From an uncultured Candidatus Saccharibacteria bacterium (GTDB lineage: Bacteria; Patescibacteriota; Minisyncoccia; Minisyncoccales; PEYH01), in the NCBI GenBank assembly GCA_964616145.1, contig CAZTRD010000003.1, positions 5,892 through 69,891 of the forward strand: 64,000 nt of DNA. Direction: 5' to 3'. Positions within the stretch are counted from its first letter, which is position 1. Each line of letters begins with the position of its first letter. Shown here piece by piece: positions 4,470-60,266 of the stretch. The notes below the pieces were generated by a model, which was not told the origin of the DNA, made no database searches, and saw only the letters and a program-made list of their open reading frames with translations. Position numbers and translations under genes: made by a program.

Positions 4470-4582
4470 TAATTATCAAGAGAGACGGTGAGAGATTTGG
4501 CTCTGCGATCCGCCCAGCAACCCTTAAAGTCGACTGCTTTAAGAAGGTGCTAAATCCAAACCCATAAGGGAAAGATAAAAGG
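4470..4582 (+). promoter_or_regulatory. SAM-I (S-box) riboswitch aptamer
   Basis: UUAUCAAGAGAGACGGUGAGAGAUUUGGCUCUGCGAUCCGCCCAGCAACC ... AAGGUGCUAAAUCC ... CCCAUAAGGGAAAGAUAA matches the S-box core (AUCAAGAG, GGC..GAU..CC.GCAACC, GGUGCUAAAUCC). P1 pairs UUAUC 4473-4477 with GAUAA 4574-4578. Confidence 0.8.
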
Positions 4583-8128: not shown

Positions 8129-8644
8129 GTGATGGGAGAGAAGAAGGAGCACTTCGACGCTGTAACCTTGGCTTTCGTAGCCATCGCCATCGCCTGTGCC
8201 ATCTTCGGCAGTCTGGCCGCAGGGCTTATCCCTGCCAGAGAAGCGGGATTCGCCCTACTATCGTGGGCTGCTACTGGTCACGTGATCACGCTGATCTGCG
8301 TCATCATCCAACACGAGACCAACGCAGCTGTCGTACTCTTCGTCTTCATGGGCTTCTGGATCTGCGCTGGACTGGGTCTCAGCTTCTTGTCATCGCATGG
8401 ACTGCACAGGCTTCTGATGGTGATCGAGCCCACGCTGCTGGCTATCACCTTCCTGTGGCAGTTCTTGTACCGGAACAAGCGACAGCTGAGGTGCGTTCTC
8501 CTAGGCTTGGCCTGGGTAATCCTATGGCTCTTTGTCTCCAAGTTCATTCCCCAGTTAGGCGTGATGACGCCATACTGGGTGTGGGCTCTGGGCCTCTATC
8601 TGCTTCTATTGGCATTCTGGCGAAGACTGCACCCGGCAGGATAG
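8129..8644 (+). CDS. High-GC cassette A: 171-aa polytopic (about 6 TM) membrane protein, no recognised family
   Basis: GC jumps to ~55 % (hand count). AAGGAGGA lies 7 nt before ATG 8132 (GTG 8129 in the track). Codon third positions are G/C-rich. Six hydrophobic stretches are present (e.g. VTLAFVAIAIACAIFGSLAAGLI, AAVVLFVFMGFWICAGLGLSFL). Confidence 0.7.
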   Translation: MMGEKKEHFDAVTLAFVAIAIACAIFGSLAAGLIPAREAGFALLSWAATGHVITLICVIIQHETNAAVVLFVFMGFWICAGLGLSFLSSHGLHRLLMVIEPTLLAITFLWQFLYRNKRQLRCVLLGLAWVILWLFVSKFIPQLGVMTPYWVWALGLYLLLLAFWRRLHPAG

Positions 8645-12989: not shown

Positions 12990-13030
12990 AAAAACAGAAC
13001 GGGAGGGGATCGTAGTCCTCTCCCGTTTAC
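12990..13030. terminator. GC-rich hairpin between convergent genes (bidirectional terminator)
   Basis: AACGGGAGGGGA-ucguag-UCCUCUCCCGUU forms a ~12-bp stem with one G-U pair. A T-run follows on the minus strand (ctgtttttaaa) and a weaker one on the plus strand (tttacgttt). Confidence 0.65.
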
Positions 13031-13998
13031 GTTTCCTCGCTGTACGACACTTCCCAGTCCGATGTTCCAGACGGGAAGACCTCTGCGACGATGTAGTCCT
13101 TCTGGGCATCCAGACCGGTAGTGATGAGGAGCTCAATCCCGCCAAGTCTGCCAGAAGGGTCTCCCAGCGTTTCTGCCTGAGCGGCGACCTGGCACTCGAC
13201 AGGATCTGTCGCAATTTCAAGACCAAGAAGTTGTCTGAGATCGTAATAGAACCAATCCCTGACTGATCCATCGATCTTCTTGAGAGCTATTGCCAGCAGG
13301 TACAAAGGCCACTTTTCAGCAACCTCTTGCACCGCTTGCACTCCTTTCAGATCGGGGAATTTCTTTTTGCTCTCGAAATTGAATGTCCCTATGTAGCTAT
13401 AGAGCGCCACCCAGACGAATCTGGAAAAACCCTGAAGCTGATATTGCAGTTTCTTGTTCCCGTTAATCTCAGCCCAGAAGATATCGCGCACCAATAGAGC
13501 ATCTTCCCTTGAGAAGGTGAATCTCACGCCCCTAGGGACAGGAATTTCCACCTGTCTAGATCTAAGGGTTTTGATTCTTCTCCCGGGCAGATAGACTCTA
13601 TTGATTCGAATATTGTGGGTTGGAGATTTCCACGTCATTACCGTTACCCTGGTTATCCTTTGGATCAGCGTGAAAAGTTGCGGAGCAACTAGGAGGTATT
13701 GCTCTTCTGACAGAACTGCTTGTTTCTCGCGTCGAGGTATATATGATTCTCTCGGCAGTTTATCTCTGCCGTCGGACTTGTGATACGGCCTCGTGCGCCA
13801 GAGACCAATTTCCATCAGAACAGCTTGCTCGCTAGTACCGTCATGAACACCGACTACCGCTATCACATCCAATCTGGCTCGAGGATTCTCCGTGACCCTA
13901 AAAGAGGCATTGCCAGGATCTATGATGATCAGATACCTGGCATTTCTTTCAATGGTCTCCACGTCCCGTCTTGCTCTCTCTGGATCGAACCCTGACAT
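13027..13998 (-). CDS. High-GC cassette B: 324-aa soluble protein, no recognised family
   Basis: About 57 % GC (hand count). AGGAGGGAGG lies 7 nt upstream of the ATG at 13998 (MSGFDPERARR...). The longer track ORF (to 14091) adds 31 codons made of the AT-rich promoter region. An open frame of over 320 codons in GC-rich DNA is very unlikely by chance. Confidence 0.7.
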   Translation of the reverse strand: MSGFDPERARRDVETIERNARYLIIIDPGNASFRVTENPRARLDVIAVVGVHDGTSEQAVLMEIGLWRTRPYHKSDGRDKLPRESYIPRREKQAVLSEEQYLLVAPQLFTLIQRITRVTVMTWKSPTHNIRINRVYLPGRRIKTLRSRQVEIPVPRGVRFTFSREDALLVRDIFWAEINGNKKLQYQLQGFSRFVWVALYSYIGTFNFESKKKFPDLKGVQAVQEVAEKWPLYLLAIALKKIDGSVRDWFYYDLRQLLGLEIATDPVECQVAAQAETLGDPSGRLGGIELLITTGLDAQKDYIVAEVFPSGTSDWEVSYSEET

Positions 13999-14062
13999 TG
14001 ACTTTCCTCCCTCCTTTCGCATTTCAGCGAGTTTTTTGTACAAGGTGCAGAAATGATATTTC

Positions 14063-14091
14063 ACCTTAAAGGGTATATAAAAAAATGTCAA
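14063..14091 (-). promoter_or_regulatory. Sigma70-type promoter of cassette B
   Basis: On the minus strand: TTGACA (14091-14086), a 17-nt spacer, then TAAGGT (14068-14063). Confidence 0.45.
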
Positions 14092-41841: not shown

Positions 41842-42771
41842 ATGTTTTTACCTAAAACTTTTTTAAAGATTTTTTTGTTGGTTATTCTTTACTTAGCTGT
41901 TTTTCTATTCATTCTTTTTTTTCCAAAAATATTTCATGGAGAATATATAACAGGAAATTCCTGTAATCTGCCACTAAGCGAATCTTTTAAAAAATATGAT
42001 GATTCGTTTTTGAAATTAAACGCTCAATCAGCAATCTCAATAGAATATGAAAATGGGATATATCATATTCTCTATGAAAAAAATCCAGACCAAAAATTGC
42101 CTATTGCCAGTTTAACAAAATTGCTAACCGGATTAGTTGCAATTAATGAATACAGTTTAGAGCAGAGGATTGTATTCTCCCAAGAATCAATAGATATTCC
42201 AGAGAATACTGGACTATACATGGCTGATCAGGTTTTTGAAGTAAGTGATCTATTAAATTCAATGCTGATTGAATCCAGCAATGATGCTGCCTGGGAGATT
42301 TCAAGAATTGAAGGGAATGATAACTTTGTTTACTTAACGAATGAAAAGGCAAAAGAATTAAAAATGAATGATTCTTTGTTTTTTGATCCGGTAGGACTGG
42401 ACCCTGATTACTATGGAAAGGATATTAATTTTTCCACTGCCAGAGATTTAACGAAATTAATAGCTGGAATATTAAAAGAGCAAAAATTAATGAAAATATT
42501 GGGAACAAGAGAAGCTGATATATATCAAAGCAATGGCATATTCCATCATACGGCATTTTCTACGAATAAAATGCTTTTTGATTACAACACTTCTGTAATT
42601 GCAGGGAAAACTGGAAGTACTCCTTTGGCAAAAGAGTGCCTATTAATCATTGCCAAACATCCAAAATATCCAAATGCATACATTATCAATGTAATCTTAG
42701 GATCTGAGAAAAGATATGAAGATATGGACAATTTGATTAATTGGATAAACAATAACTATATACGACTATGA
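41842..42771 (+). CDS. D-alanyl-D-alanine carboxypeptidase (S11 PBP5-like)
   Basis: SxxK 'IASLTKLL', SxN 'SSNDAA' and KTG 'GKTGST'. N-terminal TM anchor. Confidence 0.85.
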   Translation: MFLPKTFLKIFLLVILYLAVFLFILFFPKIFHGEYITGNSCNLPLSESFKKYDDSFLKLNAQSAISIEYENGIYHILYEKNPDQKLPIASLTKLLTGLVAINEYSLEQRIVFSQESIDIPENTGLYMADQVFEVSDLLNSMLIESSNDAAWEISRIEGNDNFVYLTNEKAKELKMNDSLFFDPVGLDPDYYGKDINFSTARDLTKLIAGILKEQKLMKILGTREADIYQSNGIFHHTAFSTNKMLFDYNTSVIAGKTGSTPLAKECLLIIAKHPKYPNAYIINVILGSEKRYEDMDNLINWINNNYIRL

Positions 42772-43853
42772 ATAGAATCCCGACATACCTATATGATCCG
42801 GAATTAATATCTAATGTGTTAAAAATATTTGGTTTGGGAGCCATATCTTTTGTTGCCGCATTTTTTGCAGCTCCTGCCTTAACTAATTTTTTGTATCGCC
42901 ACAAGCTTTGGAAAAAAACAGCTAGGGACACTTCAATTGACGGGAAAACGTTAGAAGTATTTACTAAATTCCATAAAGAAAGGGAAACAAGCGTACCAAG
43001 ATTCGGAGGATTGTTGGTTTGGGCAGTACCTTTAGGAATTGCCGCAATATTTGTCATTCTATCCAGGACTCATTGGCCAGTATTTGAGAAGTTGGATTTC
43101 TTTTCTAGGTCTCAAACTTGGTTGCCATTTTTTGCATTAATAATGGGCTCTTTTATTGGTTTATTAGATGATTTCTTGCAAACAAAAGGAAAGGGAAAAT
43201 ATATCGGCGGGGGATTAAGTTTAAAAACAAGATTACTGGTAATGGCTTCCATAGGGCTCATTGCCGGGGTATGGTTCTTTTTTAAGCTTGATTGGAGAAC
43301 TTTGCATATACCAGGATATAGAGATGTATGGATAGGGCTATGGTATATACCTTTGTTTGTGATAACAATGCTGGCTACATATTCGGGGGGAGTAATAGAT
43401 GGATTAGATGGGCTCGCTGGAGGAAGTTTTGCAACAATATTTGCGGCTTTTGGAGCGATAACATTTTTTAAGGGCCAAGTGGATCTATCTGCTTTTTGCG
43501 CTGTTGTGGCTGGCGCTATTTTAGCATTTTTATGGTTTAACATACCTCCTGCCAGATTCTATATGGGAGAAACAGGAGTAATGGGACTATGCGCTGCTTT
43601 AACTGTAGTAGTTTTTCTTTCTGACTCCGTATTATTGCTTCCCATTATTGGAATCCTCTTGCTGTTAGAAGCAGCTTCTGTAATTCTGCAGCTTTTATCA
43701 AAGAAGTTTTTAAAGAGAAAGATATTTTTGGCATCTCCTCTGCATCATCATTTTGAAGCCAAGGGTTGGCCCCAATACAAGATAACGATGAGATTTTGGG
43801 TAATAGGGATAATTGCAGCAATGGTTGGGATAGCCATCAGCTTATTCGGATAA
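42768..43853 (+). CDS. mraY: Phospho-N-acetylmuramoyl-pentapeptide transferase
   Basis: Polytopic membrane protein with 'GLLDDFLQ', 'NLVDGLDGLAGG'-like 'GGVIDGLDGLAGG' and 'PLHHHFE'. Confidence 0.9.
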   Translation: MNRIPTYLYDPELISNVLKIFGLGAISFVAAFFAAPALTNFLYRHKLWKKTARDTSIDGKTLEVFTKFHKERETSVPRFGGLLVWAVPLGIAAIFVILSRTHWPVFEKLDFFSRSQTWLPFFALIMGSFIGLLDDFLQTKGKGKYIGGGLSLKTRLLVMASIGLIAGVWFFFKLDWRTLHIPGYRDVWIGLWYIPLFVITMLATYSGGVIDGLDGLAGGSFATIFAAFGAITFFKGQVDLSAFCAVVAGAILAFLWFNIPPARFYMGETGVMGLCAALTVVVFLSDSVLLLPIIGILLLLEAASVILQLLSKKFLKRKIFLASPLHHHFEAKGWPQYKITMRFWVIGIIAAMVGIAISLFG

Positions 43854-43854
43854 T

Positions 43855-45084
43855 ATGGATAAAGTCAAAAATTTAAGAAAAAAATATCCTAAGTTTGTTT
43901 ATTCAAACTATTCCTATCGTTTTTTAAAGAATAATTTAGAAATCGTTTTTGATTTTCAAACAAAACCGGATTTAAAATTCAAAACAAAAATTGTAATCAA
44001 GAATGTGAAAGAAAAGAGGGGATTGGATAATTTAATTTTCCATTTAGGGCTGATAGAAATGTTCAATTACTGGAAAGCTACCTGCTCTCCGGAAATTATG
44101 ATACAGGCAGGATATTTAAATGCTGATGGAGTTAAATTCTTAAAGAGGATAATATTTAACGGAATGGGCCAGTATTTCTATGAAAACAAAATTAATTATC
44201 TTTCTAAAGATTTTTTAAAGATTACGATTAATTCTAGGAATAAATTAGGGATTAATAATCAAAAGAATAATGTAAAGAAGATATTAGTTCCTATCGGAGG
44301 GGGGAAGGATACTCCAACAACCATAGAACTATTGAGAGATGATGAAAATACATTAAATGGATTCATTTTAAATCCTAGAAAATCTCAATCAGAGATAGCC
44401 AAAATCGGGAAATTAAAAGAAGCAATTATTGTTGAAAGGAAAATTGATCCAAAACTGTTGGAATTGAATAAAAAGATAGGCTTAAACGGCCATGTCCCGT
44501 TTTCCGCCTTTTTATCCTGCCTAAGCTTGATAATCGCAACCCTTACTAATGCAAGCAGAGTGGCTTTTTCCTGGGAAAAAAGCTCAAATGAGCCAAATGT
44601 AAAATATCTTGGCAAATGGATAAATCATCAATGGTCAAAAAGCATGGAATTTGAGAAACTATTCAATTCATATGCCAGAAAATATCTGACAAAGAATGTA
44701 GAAATATTCTCTCCAACCAGAAATTTTACTGAATTGCAAATTGCCGAAATATTTACTAAGCTAGGAAGATATCATAAGGCATTTTTGAGCTGCAATAATG
44801 CTTACAAAATTGATTCAAAGAATAATGAATGGTGCGGAAAGTGTCCTAAATGTTTATCCGTCTATCTATATCTCTATCCTTTTTTAGGAAAAGAGAAATT
44901 GAAGAATATTTTTAAGAAAAACTTGTTTGAAGATAAAAAATTAATTCCTTTAATGAAACAGTTGATAGGGAAAGAGAGGTTTAAGCCGTTTGAATGCGTT
45001 GGAACGATTAAAGAAAATAGAAAAGTATTTGAAATCATTAAAAAACAAAATAAAGATAAAAATAACATTTTATTAAAAATATGA
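43855..45084 (+). CDS. Uncharacterised protein with PP-loop-like motif and C-terminal Cys motif (possible MurL-type epimerase; inference only)
   Basis: 'KKILVPIGGGKDTPTTIELL' resembles the SGGxDS PP-loop. 'WCGKCPKC' lies near the C-terminus. Starts 1 nt after mraY and overlaps the next gene by 4 nt. Confidence 0.45.
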   Translation: MDKVKNLRKKYPKFVYSNYSYRFLKNNLEIVFDFQTKPDLKFKTKIVIKNVKEKRGLDNLIFHLGLIEMFNYWKATCSPEIMIQAGYLNADGVKFLKRIIFNGMGQYFYENKINYLSKDFLKITINSRNKLGINNQKNNVKKILVPIGGGKDTPTTIELLRDDENTLNGFILNPRKSQSEIAKIGKLKEAIIVERKIDPKLLELNKKIGLNGHVPFSAFLSCLSLIIATLTNASRVAFSWEKSSNEPNVKYLGKWINHQWSKSMEFEKLFNSYARKYLTKNVEIFSPTRNFTELQIAEIFTKLGRYHKAFLSCNNAYKIDSKNNEWCGKCPKCLSVYLYLYPFLGKEKLKNIFKKNLFEDKKLIPLMKQLIGKERFKPFECVGTIKENRKVFEIIKKQNKDKNNILLKI

Positions 45085-47078
45085 CAGAACAAATACCAAA
45101 ACCAGTTGAATATAATCGGTTCAGTTCTTTAAGAGGAATTATTAAGGCCGGAGCGTTTTTAACTTTGTTGGCTCCGCTTTTAGTATGCAATAAATTCTTT
45201 TTCCCTTTTGTCGGACCCAAAAGCATATATTTTATGGCTGTGGTTGAGATAATATTTTTTGCTTGGATAATTTTGGCAATATTTGATAAATCATACAGGC
45301 CAAAGATTAATGCTTTAACAATATCAATCCTTGTATTTCTATTGATAATCACTTTAAGTGGGGTTTTGGGAGTAAATCCATCAAATTCTTTCTGGTCAAA
45401 GCATGAAAGAATCACCGGGCTTTTAATGATGTATCATTTGTTTGCGTATTTTCTGGTTTTAAAATCAACATTCAAAGATAGGAAGGAATGGATGTGGTTG
45501 TTATATGCTTCAATAGGAGTCGGGGTATTAGTATCAATATTAAGTTTTAGGCCCGAATTAATCAAGTTAAGTAGTGCTAGCGCTAGGGGCGGAGCTACTT
45601 TGGGAAATAGTAGTTTTTTAGGAAGTTATCTTCTATTTAATTTTTTCTTTGCTTTCTTTGCCTTGATCAAGTCAAAGAAGTTTTGGAAATTACTGTGGCT
45701 TGGCTGCATGATATTATTTTTCTTGTCTATCCTGTTGAATGGAGCTAGGGCAGCTACTCTTGTGTCTATTCTAGGATTGATTCTAATTGGATTGTTCTGG
45801 ATTTCTTTTGTAGCAAAACAGAAATGGATCAGGTGGGCGGGTAGGGGAGTAATAGTCATTTTAATCTGTCTTGGTTGCATTGTTATGTTTTTGGTAACTC
45901 AAAAAGATAGCTTTGTCCAGAAACTCATGATTGAACATACTATGGGAAGCAGATTAATCACACTTCGCTCATCCTGGGGAGCATTTAAAGCTAAACCATT
46001 GTTAGGATGGGGTTGGGAAAATTTTGATTCTATCTGGACGAAATATTACGATCCATCATCGCCAACAACAATGGGAGGAGGGGAATATTGGTATGATAAA
46101 GCGCACAATGTAGTTGCAGAAACTGCTGCAACTTCTGGTATTTTAGGTCTATTGTCATATTTAGGCATTTTTGTAACAGTTTTTATTATTTTGATAAAAA
46201 GGTTTTTCAAGAAAAAAGATTTCTGGCTGCCAGCTATTTTTAGTTCTTTGCTCATGGCTTACTTTTTGCAGAATCTGACTGTATTTGATATGATCTCCAG
46301 TTATATTGTCTTATTCCTGTCTTTGGCTTTTATAGATTCTCTGTATAAAGAAGAAAAAGAATATCCCAACATTGATTTATCAACATTAAATATTGGATTA
46401 AGTTTAATTGCTTTAGCATGCTTAATTGCTTCTTTGATATTCTTTGTGATAAATCCCTTGAAATCTTCCGCCTATATCTCTAAGGTAGGCATAGCAGAAA
46501 ATTCAACAGAGAGATTGGGATATTACAAGGCCTCAATATTAACTTCCCTACTAGGAAGATTCCAGAATAGGGCTTTTCTGGCAAGAGAAACCTTGGTTCT
46601 TTCTAGATCTTCTGCGCTTGAGCAAATTAATCCGGAAAATTTCTCCCAAGAAGTTAATTTCATCACTCAGGAATTGGAAAAAACGGTAAAGGAAAGCAAA
46701 TATGATTTAAGGTCCAGAATGGATTTATCTCAGATATATGCGGCTAGGGCGGTTTTCTTCAAAGAATCGTTTGAAAAAGCTCAAAAACTTGTTGATGAAA
46801 CTTTGACATTGTGTCCAAATAATCAGCAGGCTCTATGGAATGCCGCTCAAATGGCTGCCTATCAAAAGGAATATGATAAGACGATGGAATATGCTCAAAA
46901 AGCCATTGATGTAGCTCCAAATCTAGCTGAATCATATTATACATATGTAAAATTGGCATTTTTGACTGGACAGAATGAGCTAGCATACAAAATGGCAGAG
47001 GAAAGCAAAAAAACTATTAATACTGTTGAATTTGAGAAGAAAATGCAGACAATTTTAGATGAATATTCCAAGAAATAA
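45081..47078 (+). CDS. O-antigen ligase/Wzy_C-like polytopic membrane protein with C-terminal TPR-like repeats
   Basis: At least 10 TM helices with a central 'LNGARAATLVSILGLILIGL' segment and a large loop 'GWGWENFDSIW...YDKAHNVVAETAATSGILG', typical of Wzy_C/O-antigen ligase-like proteins. The C-terminal ~200 aa are helical repeats (ALWNAAQMAAYQKEYDKTMEYAQKAIDVAPNLAESYY). Confidence 0.6.
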   Translation: MTEQIPKPVEYNRFSSLRGIIKAGAFLTLLAPLLVCNKFFFPFVGPKSIYFMAVVEIIFFAWIILAIFDKSYRPKINALTISILVFLLIITLSGVLGVNPSNSFWSKHERITGLLMMYHLFAYFLVLKSTFKDRKEWMWLLYASIGVGVLVSILSFRPELIKLSSASARGGATLGNSSFLGSYLLFNFFFAFFALIKSKKFWKLLWLGCMILFFLSILLNGARAATLVSILGLILIGLFWISFVAKQKWIRWAGRGVIVILICLGCIVMFLVTQKDSFVQKLMIEHTMGSRLITLRSSWGAFKAKPLLGWGWENFDSIWTKYYDPSSPTTMGGGEYWYDKAHNVVAETAATSGILGLLSYLGIFVTVFIILIKRFFKKKDFWLPAIFSSLLMAYFLQNLTVFDMISSYIVLFLSLAFIDSLYKEEKEYPNIDLSTLNIGLSLIALACLIASLIFFVINPLKSSAYISKVGIAENSTERLGYYKASILTSLLGRFQNRAFLARETLVLSRSSALEQINPENFSQEVNFITQELEKTVKESKYDLRSRMDLSQIYAARAVFFKESFEKAQKLVDETLTLCPNNQQALWNAAQMAAYQKEYDKTMEYAQKAIDVAPNLAESYYTYVKLAFLTGQNELAYKMAEESKKTINTVEFEKKMQTILDEYSKK

Positions 47079-47155
47079 GTTATCCACAGAACTAAAGATA
47101 AAACATTTTGACTAGTAATGATATAATATAATTTAGAGAACTAATATCATAATAT

Positions 47156-48067
47156 ATGAAACAATCTGCAATAATAGCCGTATTGTTTTGGTCAATTATG
47201 GGGGTTATAATTTGTATTTCCATTTTATCAACATCTAGTGTTATTGCCGATACTGACACTGCCAATACATTAACGGAAATAGGAAATGCGACTCCAACTG
47301 TTGTTATTAATAGCGTAACTGGTCCAATAACGCTACTTGAAAATGGACATACGGCAATTGCTTGGGCAACAAGTACAGTAACTGATAATAATGGATGTGA
47401 CGAAGTAGATTTTGCAACATCTGTCGTCGCTGTTTTTTACGACAGCGCTGCAGTAGCAACAAGTTGCTCTTCCAATGGAAGAAATTGTTATCCAAGTGCA
47501 AGTACAACGTGTGCTGTAAGCGCGGGTGATACTTGCGATGGCGTAGGAGATACCAGCGTCGAATGGTCTTGCTATGTTAATCCATGGCATTACGCTAACG
47601 ATGCTGCTACTTGGAAATGGTATATAGCGGCATCTGATGCTGCTAATACGGGATCTAGTACGAGCGATACAGTTACTGTAAATCCTTTGCTTGCTCTTGA
47701 TGTAACAGAGGGTACAATAGATTATGGAACTTTGGCTCTAAATACATTATCTGCGCAAAGCACAACAACTGTTGTCAATACTGGTAATGATACAGCAATG
47801 GATGTGGGTATCAAAGAAAGTGCTGCTTTCACTTGCACTTTAGGAAACATAACCTCTACCTATCAGCATTATTCTCAATCAGGTGGATTCTCATATGGAG
47901 ATGGAACTGTATTATGGTCAACCAGCACGCAATCATTGAATGCAGACATAGCTCAGGGTGAAAATGGAAGCGAAACTCCTTCTGAAGCTGTTTACTGGTT
48001 GTTGACTACTCCTGCTGATGGCGTATCTGGATCTTGCAGTGGTACAAACTATTTTGAAGCTCAATAA
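47156..48067 (+). CDS. Secreted Thr/Ser/Ala-rich, Cys-containing surface protein
   Basis: Signal peptide (AIIAVLFWSIMGVIICISILSTSSVIA/DT). Composition is beta-rich. The C-terminal 'EAVYWLLTTPADG' is reminiscent of the WxL-domain end motif (weak). Confidence 0.55.
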   Translation: MKQSAIIAVLFWSIMGVIICISILSTSSVIADTDTANTLTEIGNATPTVVINSVTGPITLLENGHTAIAWATSTVTDNNGCDEVDFATSVVAVFYDSAAVATSCSSNGRNCYPSASTTCAVSAGDTCDGVGDTSVEWSCYVNPWHYANDAATWKWYIAASDAANTGSSTSDTVTVNPLLALDVTEGTIDYGTLALNTLSAQSTTTVVNTGNDTAMDVGIKESAAFTCTLGNITSTYQHYSQSGGFSYGDGTVLWSTSTQSLNADIAQGENGSETPSEAVYWLLTTPADGVSGSCSGTNYFEAQ

Positions 48068-48100
48068 ATCCTGTTTGTGTAAATAGATTTAATATTTAGT

Positions 48101-49081
48101 ATGAAATCTTTGTTTGATCGTTTTGCAAAATATATTATTTTTCTGTCTGTAATTTTTTTTGTATTTCCTTTAATCACTAGGGCCGGTTTTGGTTTGTCTC
48201 CGGGGAATATAAATATCAATAATGCTTTAAGGGGATCATCTTTTGAAAAAGTTTTTGTAATTTCAAGATCTGACCCTGTGGGGAATTTAATAGTAACAGT
48301 AGAACCGCTCGGAGATACTGCCGAATGGTTTCAATTTGACAGGGGAAACAAATTTACATATCCGGAAGGAGAAAAACAATTTCCGATAAAATCTGTTGTA
48401 ACTATTCCGGGAGGAACTCCCAATGGTACATATACCGGAAAGATACGATTCTCTGGATCCATGGATACCACGGGCAATACCGAGGGAGCAAGCGTCGGGA
48501 TTACTATGGGAGCATTAGCTGATATCAGCGTCACTGTTACGGATAAAGAGATTAAGGGATTCAGATTAATTGGCTTACAAGCTGAAAAAGCGGTTGAGGG
48601 AGAACCTTTGGTTCTGTCTCTCACTTTGGAAAATACCGGTAATGTGGATATCCAGCCCAGCTATATCATTGCAGAGCTTTTTGACAAATTCTATAAACTA
48701 CAATTAGCTACATTCAGGGTTTCTAAATTCAATGGATCAGTCAAGGTAGCAAGCTCTGGAAAAGTTTTAGCTACGGTACCATGGACAATTCCGGACGCAG
48801 GAAATTATTGGGCTGAGGTTTCTATCTTCGGCGATCAAAATCAATTAGTAGCAAAAGAGAAGTTACCGTTTGATGCAGTTGCTGGGACGGGATTATTGGC
48901 ATTTGTTGATAAAAACTCTGCAATATATTTCATAATGGGAGGGGTAATAATCTTTTTAATAATCATAATTGTTATTTTTGCCATACTTTTGATCAATACA
49001 AGAAATAAACAAACAAAAGAATTAGCAGAGATGACCAAACATTTAATGAAGTTGGTGAAAAACAAAAATGGAAGAAAATAG
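48101..49081 (+). CDS. Surface protein with N-terminal signal peptide, CARDB/DUF11-like beta domains and C-terminal TM anchor
   Basis: Signal 'IIFLSVIFFVFPLITRA'. 'PLVLSLTLENTGNVDIQPSYI' is a CARDB-like strand pattern. The C-terminal 'IYFIMGGVIIFLIIIIVIFAILLINTRNKQ' is a TM anchor with a basic tail. Confidence 0.55.
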   Translation: MKSLFDRFAKYIIFLSVIFFVFPLITRAGFGLSPGNININNALRGSSFEKVFVISRSDPVGNLIVTVEPLGDTAEWFQFDRGNKFTYPEGEKQFPIKSVVTIPGGTPNGTYTGKIRFSGSMDTTGNTEGASVGITMGALADISVTVTDKEIKGFRLIGLQAEKAVEGEPLVLSLTLENTGNVDIQPSYIIAELFDKFYKLQLATFRVSKFNGSVKVASSGKVLATVPWTIPDAGNYWAEVSIFGDQNQLVAKEKLPFDAVAGTGLLAFVDKNSAIYFIMGGVIIFLIIIIVIFAILLINTRNKQTKELAEMTKHLMKLVKNKNGRK

Positions 49082-50950
49082 TAAAAAAAAAATTGTTTAA
49101 TTCTTTTATTTTTATTCTTTTTTATAGGAATATCTTTTGTTAAAGCGGATAGCGATACGACAAATACCTCAGCACAGGTTATAGATATAACAGGACCAGT
49201 AATTAGTAATATAAGTTCAACTATATTAAGCAATAGTTCTGTTTCTGTTACCTGGACTACTAATGAACTAAGCACTTCTGTTGTTGATTATGGAAAGACC
49301 ACGGCTTTGGGGTCAACCGAGAGCGATCTTTTATTAGTAACCTCTCATTCTGTTACATTAAACGATCTATCTAGCGGCACAACTTACTATTACAGAGTAA
49401 GCAGCGCTGATTTGTCTGGAAACAGTACTACGGATAACAATGGCGGCAATTTCTACGCCTTTACAACTCCGTCTAATAATTTTATTCCTCCACCGAGCAG
49501 TGGAGTATCTACTCCTAAAATTTTAGAAATAGACGAGAGCAAAATACTTTTAAATAATAATTCTGAATTTACTAAAGGCCTGATGATAGAGATTATTTTA
49601 AATCTAACAAATGTAAGCAAATTCAAGATAGGGAACAGTAATAATTTAAATAGCGAAACTTGGCAAGAATTTGTACCGAAAACTTCTAAAAAGATCTCTG
49701 AGGAGGATGGAAAGAAATCAATATATTTTCAATTCCAAAACGATGAGGGATTAGCTAGCAATGTGATAGAGAAAACTATTGTCTTAGATACAAGCCCTCC
49801 ATCCGCTCCTACTAATCTAAATGTGAAATATGTAGAAAATTATGTAGAAACCAGTTTTCAGAAGCCAAGCGATGGAGATATTGCCGGATACAGATTATTT
49901 AAAAGCACTTCTGGTTTTGTTTACAATCCGTTAGGTAATGAGCAGATAATTTTAGATGGCAAAGCCGAAAGCACAATAGATAGAGATATAAGATCCGGGA
50001 GAAAATATTATTATTCCGTATTCTCCTATGACTATGTCAGAAATTATTCATCTCCAGCCGTAGCAGAGATTATCATTCCTCCATATGCATCGGAAGGAGA
50101 AGAAATAATATCTACTGATAAAGGCATAAAAACTTTTGAGTTGGAACCGCAAAAACAAAATCTGAAAATAGAAATAGGGGATAAGCTGGAAGATCTTTCT
50201 ATTTCTCAGAAAAGTTTTCATTATCTAGAAAATTCTCCAATCAATATTACTATTCCAGAAAATAGTTTTCTAAGAGATTCTGACGCTTTGGTATTAAAAG
50301 TAGGGGCAGAATTGTTGTATGGCCTGCAAAGGATAGAACATGTCTGGACTGCCAAAATCGATGTTCCCGGGAAACAAACAAGCTATCTTTTAACGCTGGA
50401 GGTGATTAGAAAAGATGGCACTAAGGAAATAATAGAATTGGGGCAAGTATTAGTAGATCCTTTTGGATATGTATACCAGGATGTAATAGAGCCGCATTTA
50501 AATTTATTCAAGGATGGGTTTTGGTCCTGGGAAAAAGCTCACAAACAAAACAGATTAGAGAAGGTAAAAGTATTTCTGTATCAATACAATGATTCATTAA
50601 AAGATTGGCAGCTCTTTGAGGCTAGCAGATATGGACAGAAAAACCCTCAGATTACGACCAAAGAAGGGGCTTACGGATTCCTTGTTCCCGAAGGGTCATA
50701 TTATCTTGAAGCCATTAAGATTGGTTTTGGGGAAAAAACAACAGAGTCATTTGAGATACGGGATCAAATAGTAAATAAAGATATTGAATTATCATCTATC
50801 ACCATTCATTGGTGGCAGGTAGATGAGAATAGGGAAGTTATTCTATTAATTATTCTTCCTATTGTTGCAATAATTGCTATAATAATTATAAAGGCAATAA
50901 AAAAACGCAGAAAAGTTAAAATTGTCTATGATGGTTTCTCAATTAAATAG
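49068..50950 (+). CDS. Large FN3-domain surface protein with C-terminal TM anchor; start separated from the body by a frameshift in the A10 tract
   Basis: The frame of 49307-50950 is open back to 49085. It reads KKNCLILLFLFFFIGISFVKA/DSDTT (signal-peptide h- and c-regions) but has no start codon. ATG 49068 (GGTGA 9 nt upstream) reads MEENSKKKIV* in another frame. One extra A, or two fewer, in the A10 tract joins them. FN3-like 'VSVTWTTNELSTSVVDYGKTTALG...TTYYYRVSSADLSGN'. C-terminal anchor 'VILLIILPIVAIIAIIIIKAIKKRRK'. Confidence 0.6.
49083..49092 (+). repeat. A10 homopolymer at the 5' end of the FN3 surface-protein gene
   Basis: Ten consecutive A residues lie between ATG 49068 (MEENSKKK...) and the long downstream frame that opens at 49085. 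Confidence 0.9.
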
Positions 50951-52250
50951 AAAATCTATTGCCTGGTTTATCGCTGGAATAATATTTCTGGTTTTTGCGT
51001 TTGCTGGTTTTTCAAAAGCGCAGACAACTCCCGGTTTGCAGATTTTGTTATCAGGAAAATTGATTGATGCGGAAGGAACAACAGAGCAGACAGGAAAATT
51101 CAATATAAGTTTTGCCCTGTATGAAACCGCATCTTCTACTGATAACATATGGAGTGAAGTTTTCAGCGGAGATAACAAAGTAATAGTTGAAAATGGTATT
51201 TTTCAGGTAAGTTTAGGATTGCAGAATCCTTTTAATGTTGATTTTGAAAACAACACATATCTTTTAGGGGTAAGCATTGGGGGAACAAGCGATGTTCCTC
51301 AATGGGATCAAGAAATGACCCCTCGTATTCAAGTAACTACTTTAAAAAATCTTTTATTCTCTGGAAAAATAATAATGACAGAGGAAGAATTGGTAAATGC
51401 TTTGATTGAAGAATTTAAGAATAATACATCAAGCACAGATAAATTGACTCAAACAGCTTTCATTAATTTCTTAAAACAAAAACTTGCTCAGGCCGGAACA
51501 AGCGCTGTTATCATTTCTCCCAATACTATCAGCCTACTATTAGAACAAGTGTTAAAAATACAAGAAGATTATGAACAAAGCCTAGAAAAACAAACTTTCT
51601 GGCAATCATTGTTAAATTTCTTTACAAAGATATTTGACGCTATTGCTGAAAAATTAGGAAAAATATCTGATAAGATAACTGAGATATTTTACAGATTAGA
51701 TACCATAGATCGGGGAATTTCAAAGATTATTAATATTCTTGAAAACCAGAACCCCCAGTCAGCAAGTCTTGCTCCAACAATTTTGCCAACCGTTGATCAA
51801 CAATCAAGCATTAATTATGATGCAAATTTCTTAGTCAAAGATCTCGGGAAAATCATACTTAGAACTGGAGAAACAACTATTAGAGTATTTTCTCAATACA
51901 TTACAGAAAATACTAAAATATTTGTATTACCAATAGAAGAAATACAAGATATTTGGTGGATATCTGACAGAAAAATAGGTGAGTATTTTGAAATATCTAT
52001 TACTCAATCTCAGGGCCAAGATTTGGATTTTGAATATTGGATAATAGTTCCTAAAAACGAACTACCTCAGGAGATAATAATCATTCCTGAAACGCCAACC
52101 CCGGAAATAATTCCTACAGAATCTGCGGTTGAGCCCCCAGTAGTAGAAGAAACACCACAAGAAATACCAATAGAAAGCGTTGAAAACCCGCCAGTAGAAG
52201 AACTTCCCGAATCAATTCCAGAAATTGAGGAAGCAGCAAACCCGCTCTAG
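50922..52250 (+). CDS. Secreted protein with C-terminal Pro/Glu-rich repeats
   Basis: Signal peptide 'IAWFIAGIIFLVFAFAGFSKA/QT'. The C-terminal 'PETPTPEIIPTESAVEPPVVEETPQEIPIESVENPPVEELPESIPEIEE' is low-complexity. No family recognised. Confidence 0.55.
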   Translation: MSMMVSQLNRKSIAWFIAGIIFLVFAFAGFSKAQTTPGLQILLSGKLIDAEGTTEQTGKFNISFALYETASSTDNIWSEVFSGDNKVIVENGIFQVSLGLQNPFNVDFENNTYLLGVSIGGTSDVPQWDQEMTPRIQVTTLKNLLFSGKIIMTEEELVNALIEEFKNNTSSTDKLTQTAFINFLKQKLAQAGTSAVIISPNTISLLLEQVLKIQEDYEQSLEKQTFWQSLLNFFTKIFDAIAEKLGKISDKITEIFYRLDTIDRGISKIINILENQNPQSASLAPTILPTVDQQSSINYDANFLVKDLGKIILRTGETTIRVFSQYITENTKIFVLPIEEIQDIWWISDRKIGEYFEISITQSQGQDLDFEYWIIVPKNELPQEIIIIPETPTPEIIPTESAVEPPVVEETPQEIPIESVENPPVEELPESIPEIEEAANPL

Positions 52251-52262
52251 CGGGTTTTTTGA
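52238..52262 (+). terminator. Intrinsic terminator ending the surface-protein cluster
   Basis: AAACCCGC-ucua-GCGGGUUU stem followed by UUUUUG. The stop codon lies in the loop. Confidence 0.8.
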
Positions 52263-52289
52263 TTCTGTTTTTTATGTTAATCTAAAAGC

Positions 52290-53660
52290 ATGGATTTTAA
52301 ATTCCTGGAAAACAAAGAGGTTTTAATATTGGGCCTTGGCAGAGAAGGGGAGGCGACTTTTAAATTATTAAGAAAAGTATTTCCAGATAAGATATTTTTT
52401 ATCGCTGATCAAACAGAATTTAAAAAATTACCAATTAGATTAAGGAGGCTATCAGAAGCAGATGGTAATGTAATTTTATCCTTGGGTAAAAATTATTTAG
52501 AGATAGTAAAAAATGTCCAAGTTATTTTCAAAACTCCCGGGATTCCGGAAAAAATATTAGCTCCTTATCTAAATGATAAAATTAATGTCCTATCAGAGAT
52601 AGAAATATTTTTACAGGAGAAAAAACAAAATTGCATAGGAATTACGGGAACAAAGGGAAAGAGCACTACTTCTTCTTTGATTCATCATATTTTAAAAAAT
52701 AGCGGCATTAAATCAAAACTAATTGGAAATATCGGGAAACCCGTCTTTACGTATCTAGAAACAAAAGGCAGGGGGAAATTCGTAATAGAGCTTTCTTCTC
52801 ATCAATTAAATAGAGTAGAAACAAGTCCGCATATCGCCGTATTCTTAAATATATTCAGAGAACATTTGGATTATTACAATAATTTCAATGAATATTTTGA
52901 AGCAAAACAAAACATATTCAAATGGCAGGCGAAAAATGATTATTATATTTACAATAGCGATTTTAAACAATTAAAAGAACTCGCGAAAAAAAGCAATGGT
53001 CATTTAATTTCTTTTGGATTTGAGGGAAAACCAAAAGTTCATTTAAAAGATAACTGGATTTATTATTCAAATCAAAAAATATTAAATAGGGAAGATATAT
53101 CTCTCAAGGGCAATCATAATGTTTTAAATACCATGGCGGCGATCGCCGTTGCCAAGATATTGAAGATTCCTAACAAGAAAATAGAAAAAGCAGTTAAAAC
53201 ATTTAAACCGCTAAAACATAGGATGGAACTATTCGCTACCTATAACGGAGTGAATTTCTACAATGATTCTATCGCCACTATTCCAGAGGCCACGATACAA
53301 ATGATAAATTCAATACCTAATATAAATACCCTTATCCTGGGGGGCCTTGATAGGGGACAGGATTTTCAATCTCTGGCCTTGAAAATAATCCAGAAAAAGA
53401 TCAGGAATGTGATACTTTTACCGGAAAATGACAAAAAGATAGCTGAAGCTATTGCCAAAACGAAGGGTAGAAAACCAAAAATATATTTTGCTAGGAATAT
53501 GAAAGAGGTAGCTAAAATATCTTTTGCCAATACCAAAGAAGGTGCTTGCGTTTTATCTCCGGCTTCTGCCAGCTATAATCTGTTTAAGAATTTTGAGGAT
53601 CGGGGAAATAGATTTAAAAAGAGTATTAAGAATTTGATAAAAAATGAGCAAAACAGTTAA
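52290..53660 (+). CDS. murD: UDP-N-acetylmuramoylalanine--(D/L)-glutamate ligase
   Basis: N-terminal Rossmann 'VLILGLGREG', the Mur ligase P-loop 'GITGTKGKSTT', and 'LELSSHQL' and 'NVLNTMAAIAVA' segments. Confidence 0.85.
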   Translation: MDFKFLENKEVLILGLGREGEATFKLLRKVFPDKIFFIADQTEFKKLPIRLRRLSEADGNVILSLGKNYLEIVKNVQVIFKTPGIPEKILAPYLNDKINVLSEIEIFLQEKKQNCIGITGTKGKSTTSSLIHHILKNSGIKSKLIGNIGKPVFTYLETKGRGKFVIELSSHQLNRVETSPHIAVFLNIFREHLDYYNNFNEYFEAKQNIFKWQAKNDYYIYNSDFKQLKELAKKSNGHLISFGFEGKPKVHLKDNWIYYSNQKILNREDISLKGNHNVLNTMAAIAVAKILKIPNKKIEKAVKTFKPLKHRMELFATYNGVNFYNDSIATIPEATIQMINSIPNINTLILGGLDRGQDFQSLALKIIQKKIRNVILLPENDKKIAEAIAKTKGRKPKIYFARNMKEVAKISFANTKEGACVLSPASASYNLFKNFEDRGNRFKKSIKNLIKNEQNS

Positions 53661-57874: not shown

Positions 57875-57903
57875 TTGACAGGGGTTTTGCCCCTATATAT
57901 AAT
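57875..57903 (+). promoter_or_regulatory. Consensus sigma70 promoter upstream of the recombinase pair
   Basis: TTGACA (57875-57880), a 17-nt spacer (containing GGGGTTTTGCCCC), then TATAAT (57898-57903). The TTG 'start' of the track ORF is the -35 hexamer. Confidence 0.6.
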
Positions 57904-57946
57904 GAATATTGTTACTGAGTATAATAACTCTTACACTCATAAATAC

Positions 57947-59320
57947 ATGCTGAAAAGCCATCTTCCTATAGCAAAACACATACCGTCATTTTTAAATTAT
58001 TGCGATGATAAGGGTCTTTCAGAAAAAACTAATATTAATTATGAATCTTTTTTGAAAAGATTTTTAAAATGGTTGGAAAAAGAAAATAAAAATAATCTAC
58101 TTCCCCATGAACTTACTGTCACCGATATTAATTCTTATAAAACATATTTATCCTCCTTTTCGGGCAAAAACGGCCAAACGCTTAAAACAATTACACAAAA
58201 CTACTATTTAATCGCTTTAAGGGCTCTTATGAGCTATTTTACGGTGAAAGACATAGAATCAATCCCTTTTAGCAAGATACATCTTTTAGAAAATAAAAAA
58301 ATCAGAAAAGATATAAATTTGCTTGACCAAAATCAAATCAGACAACTTTTAACATCTCCTAGCACGCTAAATTCTATTGGCTTACGCGATAGAGCTATCT
58401 TGGGAATATTAATTTATGGCGGTCCGAAGGTTGATCAATTGAAAAATCTTAATAAAAACCAGATCGAGCAGGACGAATTTATTCCGAAAGAGGTTCTCCA
58501 GATGGTTAAAGCATATTTAAGAACCAGAGATGACGACTGTGAGGCTTTATTTATTAATTATCGTCATGGAAAACATATTCATGAGAGATTGACATCTCGT
58601 TCTATACAAAGAATTATTAATTATCATGGAAAAAAAGTTAAACTACCCTTTCCTATTACTCCGGAGGCGTTAAGGTGGTCCCGCGCTTATGCTCTTTTGA
58701 ATAAAAGAGTTGAGATTGAAAAAGCGTATTCTCACAGAATATTTACGATTAAAGATTATAGTAGCACAAAAATTACATCAAATTTTATTGACAATCCCAA
58801 AGCAATAAAAATCCCCTCCCCTACTTGGTATATTGTTGAAAATATCATTGAAAAAGAAATATCCTGGCTAAGGAGCACTCTTTCTTTCTTGCCTGAAGGA
58901 TATAAATTAAATCCTTCTTTCTTAAGATGCGATGATTGTATTTTAAGAAAAATAGCAATTTTAATTGCAAGCGGAACAGTTAAGGCAACTCAATTTGAAG
59001 GCAAAAATAATGAAGATATGTGGAACGGTCTTATAAAGGAACCCGGTCTTAAAAGGTTAAGTAGCCATGGACAGGAATGGCATAAAAAAATGATGGATGT
59101 AGTTCATGGATATTTTAATTCGAAAAATTATAAGGTAGTCTCGGAACCGGCTCTAAATTATGGGCGCGCAGATTTAGAGGTTTATTCAAATCATGAAAAA
59201 ACTATTGTTGAGGTCGGGACCGTTTCGTTGTATAAACTTTGGTACAATCTTTCAACAATGAAAAATGTTAATTTCTTAATTATCCCCTCTGAAAACGTAA
59301 TTATAGAATTTAATACATGA
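57947..59320 (+). CDS. Tyrosine-recombinase-like protein with degenerate catalytic residues and an extra C-terminal (possibly nuclease-fold) domain
   Basis: The N-terminal SAM-like core-binding domain is 'FLNYCDDKGLSEKTNINYESFLKRFLKW'. 'GLRDRAILGILIYGGPKVDQLKNL' has Lys where the family has the catalytic Arg (GLRxSE). 'ITPEALRWSRAY' replaces HxLRH. 'IEKAYSHR' retains a Tyr. The extra ~170 aa end in 'YKVVSEPALNYGRADLEVYSNHEKTIVEVGT'. Start taken at ATG 57947, downstream of the promoter. Confidence 0.6.
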   Translation: MLKSHLPIAKHIPSFLNYCDDKGLSEKTNINYESFLKRFLKWLEKENKNNLLPHELTVTDINSYKTYLSSFSGKNGQTLKTITQNYYLIALRALMSYFTVKDIESIPFSKIHLLENKKIRKDINLLDQNQIRQLLTSPSTLNSIGLRDRAILGILIYGGPKVDQLKNLNKNQIEQDEFIPKEVLQMVKAYLRTRDDDCEALFINYRHGKHIHERLTSRSIQRIINYHGKKVKLPFPITPEALRWSRAYALLNKRVEIEKAYSHRIFTIKDYSSTKITSNFIDNPKAIKIPSPTWYIVENIIEKEISWLRSTLSFLPEGYKLNPSFLRCDDCILRKIAILIASGTVKATQFEGKNNEDMWNGLIKEPGLKRLSSHGQEWHKKMMDVVHGYFNSKNYKVVSEPALNYGRADLEVYSNHEKTIVEVGTVSLYKLWYNLSTMKNVNFLIIPSENVIIEFNT

Positions 59321-59324
59321 TCAA

Positions 59325-60266
59325 ATGGAAAAAAACCCACTTCCTAAATTGGATGATTTTCTTCTAAATTTACAGGTGAACAATCTTTCTCAAGAAACGG
59401 TCTATAATTATGAAAGAGATTTAGAAGTATTCCAAAATTTCCTGCAAGAAATAAATATTGATTTTGATAATGTTAATAAAATGACTATTCTTAATTACAA
59501 GGCCTATTTGGTATCACGAGACCGAAAAACTCCTAAAAAACATCTGGGAGAGAAAAAACTTAATGAATATTCTATTAATAGAATGCTATCCTCCTTGCGA
59601 TCTTATTTCAAATATCTTGTAGATATGGATTACGACTCCCCTATTTCTCCCGAATCTATAAAACTTATAAAAACAACTCGTAAACATCCCCAGGTGGCGG
59701 AATTCAATGAAATCGTAAAATTAATAGAATCCCCTAGCCATATGGAGAAAAATAAACAAATAGCAGCAAGGAATCGCGCTATGTTAGAAATGCTCTTCTC
59801 TACCGGCATGAGAATCTCAGAATTAGTCGGATTAAAAACTACTCAAATCGACAATTCTGGACGTATTTTTATTTTGGGGAAGGGGAAAAAAGAAAGATTT
59901 GTCTATTTGACAGCTCGGGCACAAGAATATCTGAAACAATATTTGGATATAAAAGGTCCAGCTTCTTCACCATTTCTTTTTGTCCCCTATCGTGGAAGAA
60001 ATGTAGGAAAAAAGGATAAAAAAATATCAGCAAATTATTTGCAAGAAAAAATAAAAAAATATAGAGAATTATTAGGCATCAATATTCCTATATCTGCCCA
60101 TTCATTACGTCATGGATTTGCGACTTATTTGGCTGAGAATGGCGCAAATCCTGCGGCAATACAAATATTATTAGGTCACGAATCATTAGATACTACAACT
60201 AGATATGTACATGCTTCGGATCGTTACGCAGAAAAAACACATCGGCAATTTCATCCCCTTAAATAA
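59325..60266 (+). CDS. Site-specific tyrosine recombinase, XerC/XerD family
   Basis: 'RNRAMLEMLFSTGMRISELVGLK' (Arg I), 'GKGKKERFVYL' (Lys), 'HSLRHGFATYL' (His-x-x-Arg) and 'LLGHESLDTTTRYVH' (His, Tyr). Confidence 0.9.
   Translation: MEKNPLPKLDDFLLNLQVNNLSQETVYNYERDLEVFQNFLQEINIDFDNVNKMTILNYKAYLVSRDRKTPKKHLGEKKLNEYSINRMLSSLRSYFKYLVDMDYDSPISPESIKLIKTTRKHPQVAEFNEIVKLIESPSHMEKNKQIAARNRAMLEMLFSTGMRISELVGLKTTQIDNSGRIFILGKGKKERFVYLTARAQEYLKQYLDIKGPASSPFLFVPYRGRNVGKKDKKISANYLQEKIKKYRELLGINIPISAHSLRHGFATYLAENGANPAAIQILLGHESLDTTTRYVHASDRYAEKTHRQFHPLK

Follow-up and report, generated by a model that had tools for sequence, protein, structure and literature searches.

Polytopic membrane proteins with a Wzy_C core (PF04932) include the ligase WaaL and the O-oligosaccharyltransferases (O-OTases) of the PglL/PilO/WsaB type, and the motif H[NSQ]x9Gxx[GTY] is known from the literature on WaaL, PilO and PglL. 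Among surface-protein systems, WxL/WxLIP (Csc) clusters have been described in Firmicutes (Siezen 2006, PMC1534035; PMC10599100). The WxLIP protein consists of a signal peptide, two immunoglobulin (Ig)-like domains and a C-terminal transmembrane (TM) helix in 320–380 residues, and insertion of its hairpin into WxL is a published prediction (Hassan 2023, PMC10599100); a WxLIP-WxL complex is now present in the PDB (9i25). Here we analyze a locus in a 64-kb stretch of DNA (64,000 nucleotides of contig CAZTRD010000003.1; hereafter, the window) in which five genes are inserted into the dcw (division and cell wall) cluster between mraY and murD. They encode a Wzy_C protein with a C-terminal TPR domain (Wzy_C-TPR) and four exported or anchored proteins, p4 to p7. 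The window has a low GC content (~33%), and its best protein matches are Candidatus Pacebacteria/Paceibacterota and other Patescibacteria. A search of the literature found no paper on the Wzy_C-TPR family or on the p4–p7 cassette.

Two separable units in the dcw cluster

In the window mraY and murD are 8.4 kb apart, and all genes from mraY to murD are on the + strand. The original prediction, made from the letters of this DNA, had described the gap as an insertion of a Wzy_C-like TPR protein and four exported or anchored proteins closed by a terminator. The insertion is real, with every gene where it had been placed, and the domain calls are correct as judged by Pfam scans, sequence features and structure models. 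Five genes and a terminator are indeed found in the gap; its first 1.2 kb, however, is a murL homologue (43855–45084) that had not been named. Since murL functionally belongs with murD, the foreign segment is reduced to 45081–52262 (7.2 kb). It begins with Wzy_C-TPR (45081–47078, 665 residues), which shares its first 4 nt with the end of murL, and continues with p4 (47156–48067, 303 residues), p5 (48101–49081, 326 residues), p6 (main frame 49085–50950) and p7 (50922–52250, 442 residues). The predicted terminator is also borne out: a hairpin at 52238–52257 (AAACCCGC-TCTA-GCGGGTTT; 8-bp stem with 5 GC pairs) is followed by the T-rich TTTGATT, and the whole element including the T run (52238–52263) ends 27 nt before murD. 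Homologues of all five inserted genes are strongly conserved, so that these open reading frames (ORFs) are real genes and not chance ORFs.

The locus was compared with its relatives across about 15 lineages. The co-occurrence statistics rest on this number because scans with a p5 profile gave only 2 loci in the GTDB genome collection and 10 in metagenomes. The order mraY-murL-WzyC_TPR-p4-p5-p6-p7-murD-ftsW-murG is common to the window, to L001 and L009, which are two contigs of one metagenome-assembled genome (MAG; 84–87% identity to the window), to L002 and L012, which are independent assemblies (54–64%), and to L003 (45–57%), while L011 keeps the mraY-to-murG order up to the end of its contig, in p6. 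The insertion recurs in the dcw clusters of all these relatives. Wzy_C-TPR itself is 84, 54, and 45% identical in the relatives with the full order, and in L003 an extra protein of 1452 residues with DUF2341/LamG domains precedes it.

Elsewhere, the two parts of the insert are found apart. Distant Wzy_C-TPR homologues (38–40% identity) terminate undecaprenyl-phosphate (Und-P) glycan clusters in L004, L005 and L006, which encode a Bac_transf phosphoglycosyltransferase, a DegT aminotransferase, a PglF-like Polysacc_synt_2 dehydratase, GT2/GT4 glycosyltransferases and methyltransferases, together with a Polysacc_synt (Wzx-type) flippase in L005. None of p4–p7 lies near Wzy_C-TPR in these distant loci (3/3). 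On the other hand, the order p4-p5-p6-p7 recurs in L007/L013, L008/L018, L010, L017 and L024, away from dcw and Wzy_C, and the core pair p4-p5 of L021/L022 likewise stands apart from both. Within the sequence examined (up to 10 kb per side), six other lineages with the cassette show no dcw or Wzy_C gene; the neighbors are type IV pilins and PilM, SdpI/DUF333/BacA, CofD/NUDIX/Sua5/MFS or PAS-GGDEF-HD genes. Furthermore, the cassette has its own intrinsic terminator after p7, with hairpins equivalent to that of the window in L002, L003, L009 and L010.

These comparisons demonstrate that the locus holds two separable units, Wzy_C-TPR and the p4–p7 cassette. Their linkage is not conserved beyond one clade and each unit is found alone; for this reason the proposal that the four neighbors are dedicated substrates of the enzyme, forming one module with it, is not supported. 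We lean towards reading the 7.2-kb insert as two independent envelope units placed side by side, only in this clade, in the dcw operon of an ultrasmall, Paceibacteria-like bacterium of the Candidate Phyla Radiation (CPR). Wzy_C-TPR would then be a general envelope enzyme of these bacteria, transcriptionally joined to murL by happenstance in this clade. One observation weighs against this reading: the adjacency to murL, with its 4-nt overlap, is found in four lineages and could still reflect a functional link.

A conserved A-run at the start of p6

The description of p6 as an FN3 protein with a C-terminal anchor holds for its domains, namely two FN3-type matches (Pur_ac_phosph_N, 3.5e-7, with fn3, 4.3e-6; second fn3, 2.7e-5), a weak CarboxypepD_reg match (0.024) and a C-terminal TM helix with a basic tail. 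It does not hold for the 5′ end: p6 as listed (49307–50950) begins with a TTG at 49307 that lies deep in the first FN3 domain and is not the true start. The p6 frame opens directly after the p5 stop and encodes a perfect signal peptide (KKNCLILLFLFFFIGISFVKA, followed by DSDT), the two FN3-type domains, the CarboxypepD_reg-like domain and the TM anchor, and it has no ATG, GTG or TTG until 49307. Other in-frame starts were sought as well, and none that is canonical precedes the hydrophobic core of the signal peptide. The initiation codon of p6 is carried by a short ATG ORF (MEENSKKKIV and stop; 49068–49100, stop codon 49098–49100) that overlaps the p5 stop. This ORF contains a slippery run of ten A (A10, 49083–49092), at which a -1 shift, or an mRNA with one additional A, brings the ATG into frame with the signal peptide.

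The same -1 shift is needed in seven lineages (window, L009/L011, L002/L012, L003, L010, L016 and L024), whose p5 proteins are 45–87% identical to that of the window. In all seven, a short ORF with an ATG start ends in KKK, the A-run is nine or ten bases long, and a 0-frame stop follows 1–6 codons further on. The junctions are located at 9242–9286 in L002, 13567–13617 in L003, 1122–1151 in L009, 1965–2027 in L010, 8968–8997 in L011 and 2211–2255 in L024, and just after p5, at about 1860–1900, in L016. The junctions of L002 and L012, assembled independently, are identical. A sequencing error at the A-run is excluded, because seven lineages and two independent assemblies share the shift. The p6 start is intact in four lineages, namely L007/L013, with an in-frame A9, L008/L018, L014 and L017.

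Two forms of poly(A) recoding are known: -1 ribosomal frameshifting on A_AAA_AAA/G, as in dnaX, and transcriptional slippage on runs of at least nine A, as in Thermus dnaX, insertion sequence (IS) elements and the poly(A) rescue of Buchnera. The p6 junction is like these in its A9–A10 run, in the need for a -1 shift (or one more A), in the 0-frame stop 1–6 codons downstream and in its conservation across diverged genomes. It is unlike them in that the site lies 5–15 codons after the initiation codon, within the Lys-rich n-region of a signal peptide, in that the gene encodes a surface protein and in that no stimulatory element was identified at p6; slippage itself is here a prediction from sequence. 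The likely causes of the shift would be programmed -1 ribosomal frameshifting on A_AAA_AAA/G, transcriptional slippage adding one A, or strongly biased phase variation. The scattered distribution suggests either a recurrent origin at the Lys-rich n-region or an ancient origin with repeated repair. In a recoded gene, p6 synthesis would depend on a one-base slip of ribosomes or RNA polymerase at the A9–A10 run just after the ATG, and the efficiency of slippage would limit p6 to a sub-stoichiometric or variable level. A search of the literature found no report of slippage or poly(A) recoding in Patescibacteria/CPR.

Alternatively, the out-of-frame start could be a phase-variable OFF state produced by slipped-strand mispairing at the poly(A), or a sign of gene decay, and not programmed recoding. 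We regard this as a genuine, if tentative, possibility: A9–A10 tracts are prone to mutation, lineages with the shift occur here and there in p5 subgroups that also contain intact relatives, and the p6 of L009 additionally has an in-frame stop. What speaks for recoding is that, of 8 lineages with an A9/A10 run, 7 share the -1 state and the +1 state is not represented, that the remaining ~620 codons of p6 are open and conserved at 33–78% identity, and that the junction is identical in two independent assemblies.

As for the stop codon of L009, which belongs to the MAG that is 84–87% identical to the window, a TAG at 2750–2752 replaces a Tyr codon (GLY-stop-LEA vs GSYYLEA in the window) so that the protein loses its C-terminal 81 residues and with them the TM anchor. 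Variation in the population, gene decay and misassembly are possible explanations. In all records seen, the start called for p6 is wrong, so that a programmed shift, if true, would affect gene calling.

The Wzy_C-TPR protein

Wzy_C-TPR matches PF04932 over residues 210–361 (8.6e-16; 58.5 bits vs a gathering cut-off of 31.7). The single TPR matches in Pfam are weak, and consensus-TPR chains of the PDB match residues 552–654 at up to 2.3e-19. The ligase/OTase motif H-N-x9-G-x2-G is present as HNVVAETAATSGILG at residue 342, in a large extracytoplasmic loop, and 118 of the 120 best homologues contain H[NSQ]x9Gxx[GTY]. In the homologue alignment R223 (GARAA) and H342 (AHN) are invariant, and they are aligned to the Arg and His of 7tpg and 9rmk. 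These two structures, Cupriavidus WaaL (7tpg, 9.7e-9) and an entry named 'oligosaccharyltransferase' (9rmk, 5.5e-7), are the only PDB matches of a profile made from the membrane part of eight homologues. By its sequence, Wzy_C-TPR is a member of the Wzy_C / WaaL-PglL ligase superfamily; within it, the protein resembles WaaL and OTase about equally, and at low similarity.

With WaaL and the PglL/PilO/WsaB-type O-OTases the protein shares the polytopic Wzy_C core, the conserved Arg of GARAA and the His motif in the large outer loop; in addition, its relatives adjoin Und-P glycan pathways with a flippase. What sets it apart from them is one additional TM helix and, at the C-terminus, a TPR domain of some 200 residues (~467–665). 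A hydropathy scan parsed manually gave 13 TM helices, with predicted cytoplasmic loops that are all rich in K/R. Given the 13th helix, which precedes the TPR domain, we infer that this domain lies outside the cell, where the catalytic loop also is. A comparable arrangement is found in the eukaryotic TMTC O-mannosyltransferases, polytopic transferases of lipid-linked sugars whose non-cytoplasmic TPR domain is thought to bind protein acceptors. The likeness consists in the fusion of TPR to a membrane glycosyltransferase and is an analogy only, TMTC being GT-C proteins of the PMT-like type and Wzy_C-TPR having a Wzy_C fold. The family gave 524 matches among the candidates scored; those listed are ~640–775 residues long and combine Wzy_C with TPR, and all source names given belong to Patescibacteria or Parcubacteria.

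With a WaaL/PglL-type ligase core and a predicted catalytic Arg and His on outward-facing loops, Wzy_C-TPR would most likely transfer an undecaprenyl-pyrophosphate-linked glycan onto an extracytoplasmic acceptor, and the outward TPR domain would aid the binding of the acceptor or of a partner. The lipid A-core acceptor of WaaL is not expected in a CPR cell. As the organism is presumably monoderm and lipid-A-free, the acceptor is probably a protein, and Wzy_C-TPR would be a general O-OTase, not one dedicated to its neighbors; such an enzyme could possibly also modify p4–p7. Three considerations count against this assignment. The Wzy_C profile does not separate ligase, O-OTase and polymerase roles, the topology of the TPR domain depends on TM helices counted by hand, and the enzyme role is itself predicted.

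A rather unlikely alternative is that Wzy_C-TPR is a polymerase or ligase of a cell-wall glycopolymer tied to peptidoglycan synthesis, with p4–p7 as unrelated passengers in front of murD. This would explain the position after murL and the 4-nt overlap inside the dcw cluster, and it agrees with distant homologues that close Wzx-type glycan clusters without another polymerase candidate, as well as with a cassette that brings its own terminator and occurs as a unit in other places. However, ligases and OTases, and not Wzy polymerases, typically have this His motif, as far as motif and PDB matches allow a check, and members of the family are inside dcw only in this clade.

The model of the original prediction, in which Wzy_C-TPR is a PglL/PilO-type O-OTase and the Ser/Thr-rich p4–p7 are its dedicated substrates within a single glycoprotein adhesion module, appears less likely still. 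It can draw on the operon-like, adjacent genes of four lineages, on the ligase/OTase motif and the match to a solved oligosaccharyltransferase, on the link of distant homologues to a bacillosamine-like sugar pathway that includes a flippase and lacks another Wzy_C gene, on the 26.7% Ser+Thr of p4 and the Pro/Glu/Thr tail of p7, and on the probable extracytoplasmic location of the TPR domain. Against these stand the separation of the units described above, with no nearby Wzy_C for the cassette in at least six lineages and no cassette for Wzy_C-TPR in the three distant loci, and the equal similarity to WaaL. In addition, no glycan-synthesis genes that could serve a local glycosylation were found in the 64-kb window: its ORFs at 21.6–33 kb are housekeeping genes (such as ftsZ, enolase and phosphoglycerate mutase) and the others are unrelated to glycan synthesis.

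The p4-p5 pair, the flanking genes and their significance

The first of the four downstream proteins, p4, had been described as rich in Thr, Ser and Ala and as containing Cys, and this is confirmed: besides a signal peptide, it has 26.7% Ser+Thr, 11.2% Ala and 9 Cys. It belongs to no Pfam or NCBIfam family. Conserved in the p4 alignment are the motifs TDNNGC and TNTGN, four near-invariant Cys and a Y-W-x-L near the C-terminus, and the sequence contains no anchor of its own. Structures of two proteins, p4 and p5, were modeled as monomers with AlphaFold2 (AF2). The p4 model (predicted local distance difference test, pLDDT, 72.2; the other four models 54–62) consists of two beta domains after a disordered mature N-terminus. 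Its best fold match is a self-complemented CfaB pilin dimer (1.1e-5, TMq 0.35), the rest being generic Ig folds, and a p4 profile gave no matches among PDB sequences.

The second protein, p5, had been called CARDB-like with a C-terminal anchor, and both features are seen: CARDB is found in 10 of 66 family members, and the AF2 model (pLDDT 83.7) shows two Ig-like beta-sandwich domains and a long C-terminal TM helix with a basic tail, after a signal peptide. Foldseek retrieves generic tandem-Ig proteins, including the Enterococcus faecium WxLIP (9i1y, 2.3e-8; 9i25, bound to WxL, 6.3e-8), and also PapD-like chaperones, while a p5 profile against PDB sequences gave insignificant matches only and no WxLIP. 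The family is large: an exhaustive profile search of clusters at 50% identity found 2989 clusters at E ≤ 1e-3, 530 of them at ≤ 1e-30. All named members sampled are 'hypothetical proteins' of Patescibacteria, and their coverage by Pfam is poor (CARDB as above; WxLIP_HBD, PF11797, in 3/66). A distant p5-like neighborhood (L023, 11004–11450) contains a small Peptidase_S24 protein (signal-peptidase-like, weak match) and an LTD-domain protein, and recalls SipW/TasA-type operons.

The genes of p4 and p5 adjoin in 14 of 15 lineages, including the distant variants L019, L021 and L022. A profile-profile comparison of the two proteins found no relationship between them (probability 2.4%). Large secreted proteins carrying the p4 module are encoded beside p4-p5 in L003 (5177–9535), L007 (4916–8962), L008 (3146–6742), L021 (6646–7962) and L022 (6552–7907). 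Those of L003, L007, L021 and L022 (448–1453 residues) end in a full p4 module after adhesin-like N-terminal regions, the L003 protein having DUF2341 and Laminin_G_3 domains; in L008 the module is internal to a protein of ~1200 residues. The window itself has no such large paralogue.

This organization recalls the Csc clusters of Firmicutes. In both cases one dock gene lies in a tight cluster with a small secreted partner and with large proteins ending in the same module, and p5, with 326 residues, a signal peptide, two Ig-like domains, a TM helix and a short tail, agrees with WxLIP in architecture and size; Foldseek finds solved WxLIP structures for it, and a few of its relatives have weak PF11797 matches. 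The p4-p5 core therefore probably works like WxL/WxLIP by analogy, as a surface-display pair. In such a pair, p5 would be a membrane-anchored tandem-Ig dock, on which the p4 module, free or as the C-terminus of a large adhesin-like cargo, would sit non-covalently, possibly held by beta-strand insertion. The likeness is one of analogy, not homology, and membership by sequence fails. The resemblance to WxL/DUF916-type complexes suggested earlier for the first two proteins thus stands for architecture and gene-cluster grammar and falls for the sequences.

Several results are at odds with a WxL-like assignment. PF06030 does not match p5 and is absent from the families listed for its relatives (20 close, 66 distant), and the NQIDKxxxYFDLK motif (PMC10599100) is absent from the p5 sequence. 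PF11797 is rare and weak in the relatives and is not found in p5 itself: it occurs in 1 of the 20 close ones (P0139, 1.1e-5) and in 3 of the 66 distant ones, at 4.8e-4 or weaker. As for p4, none of 16 family members matches any WxL model at E ≤ 1, there is no match to a PDB sequence and no WxL chain is among the top 50 of Foldseek; the protein has two domains, conserved cysteines and a single conserved W-x-L (W281), vs the dual Trp-x-Leu of WxL domains. Its best fold match is a chaperone-usher pilin and not WxL, and the p5 matches are to generic tandem-Ig proteins with TM scores of 0.2–0.3. Since the matched proteins are mostly generic Ig-like ones, neither the WxLIP nor the pilin/chaperone matches are proof of homology. 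Finally, the cassette differs from Csc clusters in its conserved p6 and p7, for which this analysis identified no Csc counterpart, and in its host, Patescibacteria and not Firmicutes.

The converse idea, that the cassette builds a donor-strand-complemented fiber in place of a WxL-like display, from pilin-like p4 subunits and with p5 as a PapD-like chaperone or platform tethered to the membrane, seems to us improbable: the CfaB match of p4, the p5 matches to the chaperones FimC, Caf1M and DraB with the top target-normalized TM scores (0.40–0.46) and a conserved strand-like motif, [ST][ST]A[ST][IV][ST]N..P, in the mature p4 N-terminus that is disordered in the model (residues 25–42) are offset by matches that are all between generic Ig-like folds (root-mean-square deviation 9–16 Å), by a cassette that encodes no usher or sortase, and by a p4 model of moderate confidence.

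The last protein of the cluster, p7, had been described as a Pro/Glu-repeat protein, in agreement with the 45.7% Pro+Glu of its last 70 residues. It has a signal peptide followed by beta, helical and beta parts and the Pro/Glu-rich tail, and it belongs to no Pfam or NCBIfam family. p7 is always the last gene of the cassette; it follows p6 in L002, L003, L007, L008, L009, L010 and L017, and in L024 it is assigned by position. Together with the anchored FN3 protein p6, this extended protein would be a further, accessory component of the envelope.

The flanking genes belong to peptidoglycan synthesis. On the left, mraY (42768–43853) matches PF00953 (5.8e-20) and TIGR00445 (4.9e-44, under its cut-off); on the right, murD (52290–53660) is identified by TIGR01087 (1.3e-104; 350.8 bits vs a cut-off of 212) and by synteny, and is followed by ftsW, murG and gltX. 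The 409-residue product of the ORF at 43855–45084 matches NF041275 (MurL) over residues 14–406 (2.5e-72), at 243.8 bits and under the 700-bit equivalog cut-off, and judged by this profile is a full-length, peptidoglycan-related homologue of the UDP-MurNAc-L-Ala-L-Glu epimerase family. It is kept between mraY and the insert in L001–L003, where the orthologues carry both PF26299 (MurL_N) and PF26298 (MurL_epimerase_C). The alternative MurD2/MurL route to D-Glu is described only in Xanthomonadales, a few Alphaproteobacteria and rare actinomycetes, CPR not being listed (PMC8788868). The locus resembles that of Xanthomonas in having a full-length MurL homologue near mur genes, with both MurL Pfam domains in orthologues, and differs from it in the score under the equivalog cut-off and in the 7.2-kb insert that separates murL from murD. 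The murD at 52290 may be of the L-Glu-adding MurD2 type.

Some further features of the window were recorded. Two adjoining tyrosine-recombinase (Phage_integrase) genes, one of them unusually long (481 residues), lie directly downstream of the dcw/gltX block (57875–60266). A SAM riboswitch (RF00162, 55 bits) at 4470–4581 is upstream of a 141-residue ORF without Pfam family (4634–5059); the Rfam search of the window gave nothing else, and a tRNA search found none. Two GC-rich islands stand out from the ~33% background: one at 8200–8600 (GC 0.56–0.57; RNA fold z-score -2.7) overlaps a hydrophobic 171-residue ORF (8129–8644), the other at 13000–14000 (GC 0.45–0.60) a 354-residue ORF on the minus strand (13027–14091). 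Neither has an Rfam or Pfam match, and both may be horizontally acquired genes or structured RNAs of a new kind.

The construction of the envelope and the attachment to hosts are largely unknown in CPR/Patescibacteria. Separating the cassette from Wzy_C-TPR avoids the misleading annotation as a 'dedicated glycosylation module' and makes Wzy_C-TPR of interest as a candidate glycan ligase of general function throughout Patescibacteria, while the murL homologue in the dcw cluster hints at an alternative D-Glu route beyond the few taxa known for it. A far-reaching and quite speculative extension, to which we give little credence at present, would see in p4–p7 an undescribed surface organelle spread throughout Patescibacteria. 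In it, p5 would be the platform assembling or displaying p4-module proteins by beta-strand complementation, host-binding adhesins would plug in, and poly(A) recoding of p6 would set the subunit ratio or an on/off state; in this clade the organelle would be expressed together with septal wall synthesis, and Wzy_C-TPR would glycosylate it. If true, it would be a candidate attachment apparatus for the episymbiotic lifestyle. The p4-p5 pair shares its gene grammar with a known Gram-positive surface-display system, and p4, the obligate partner module of a family of ~3000 clusters, is without Pfam model or annotation; the pair gives a testable handle on the surface architecture of these bacteria.

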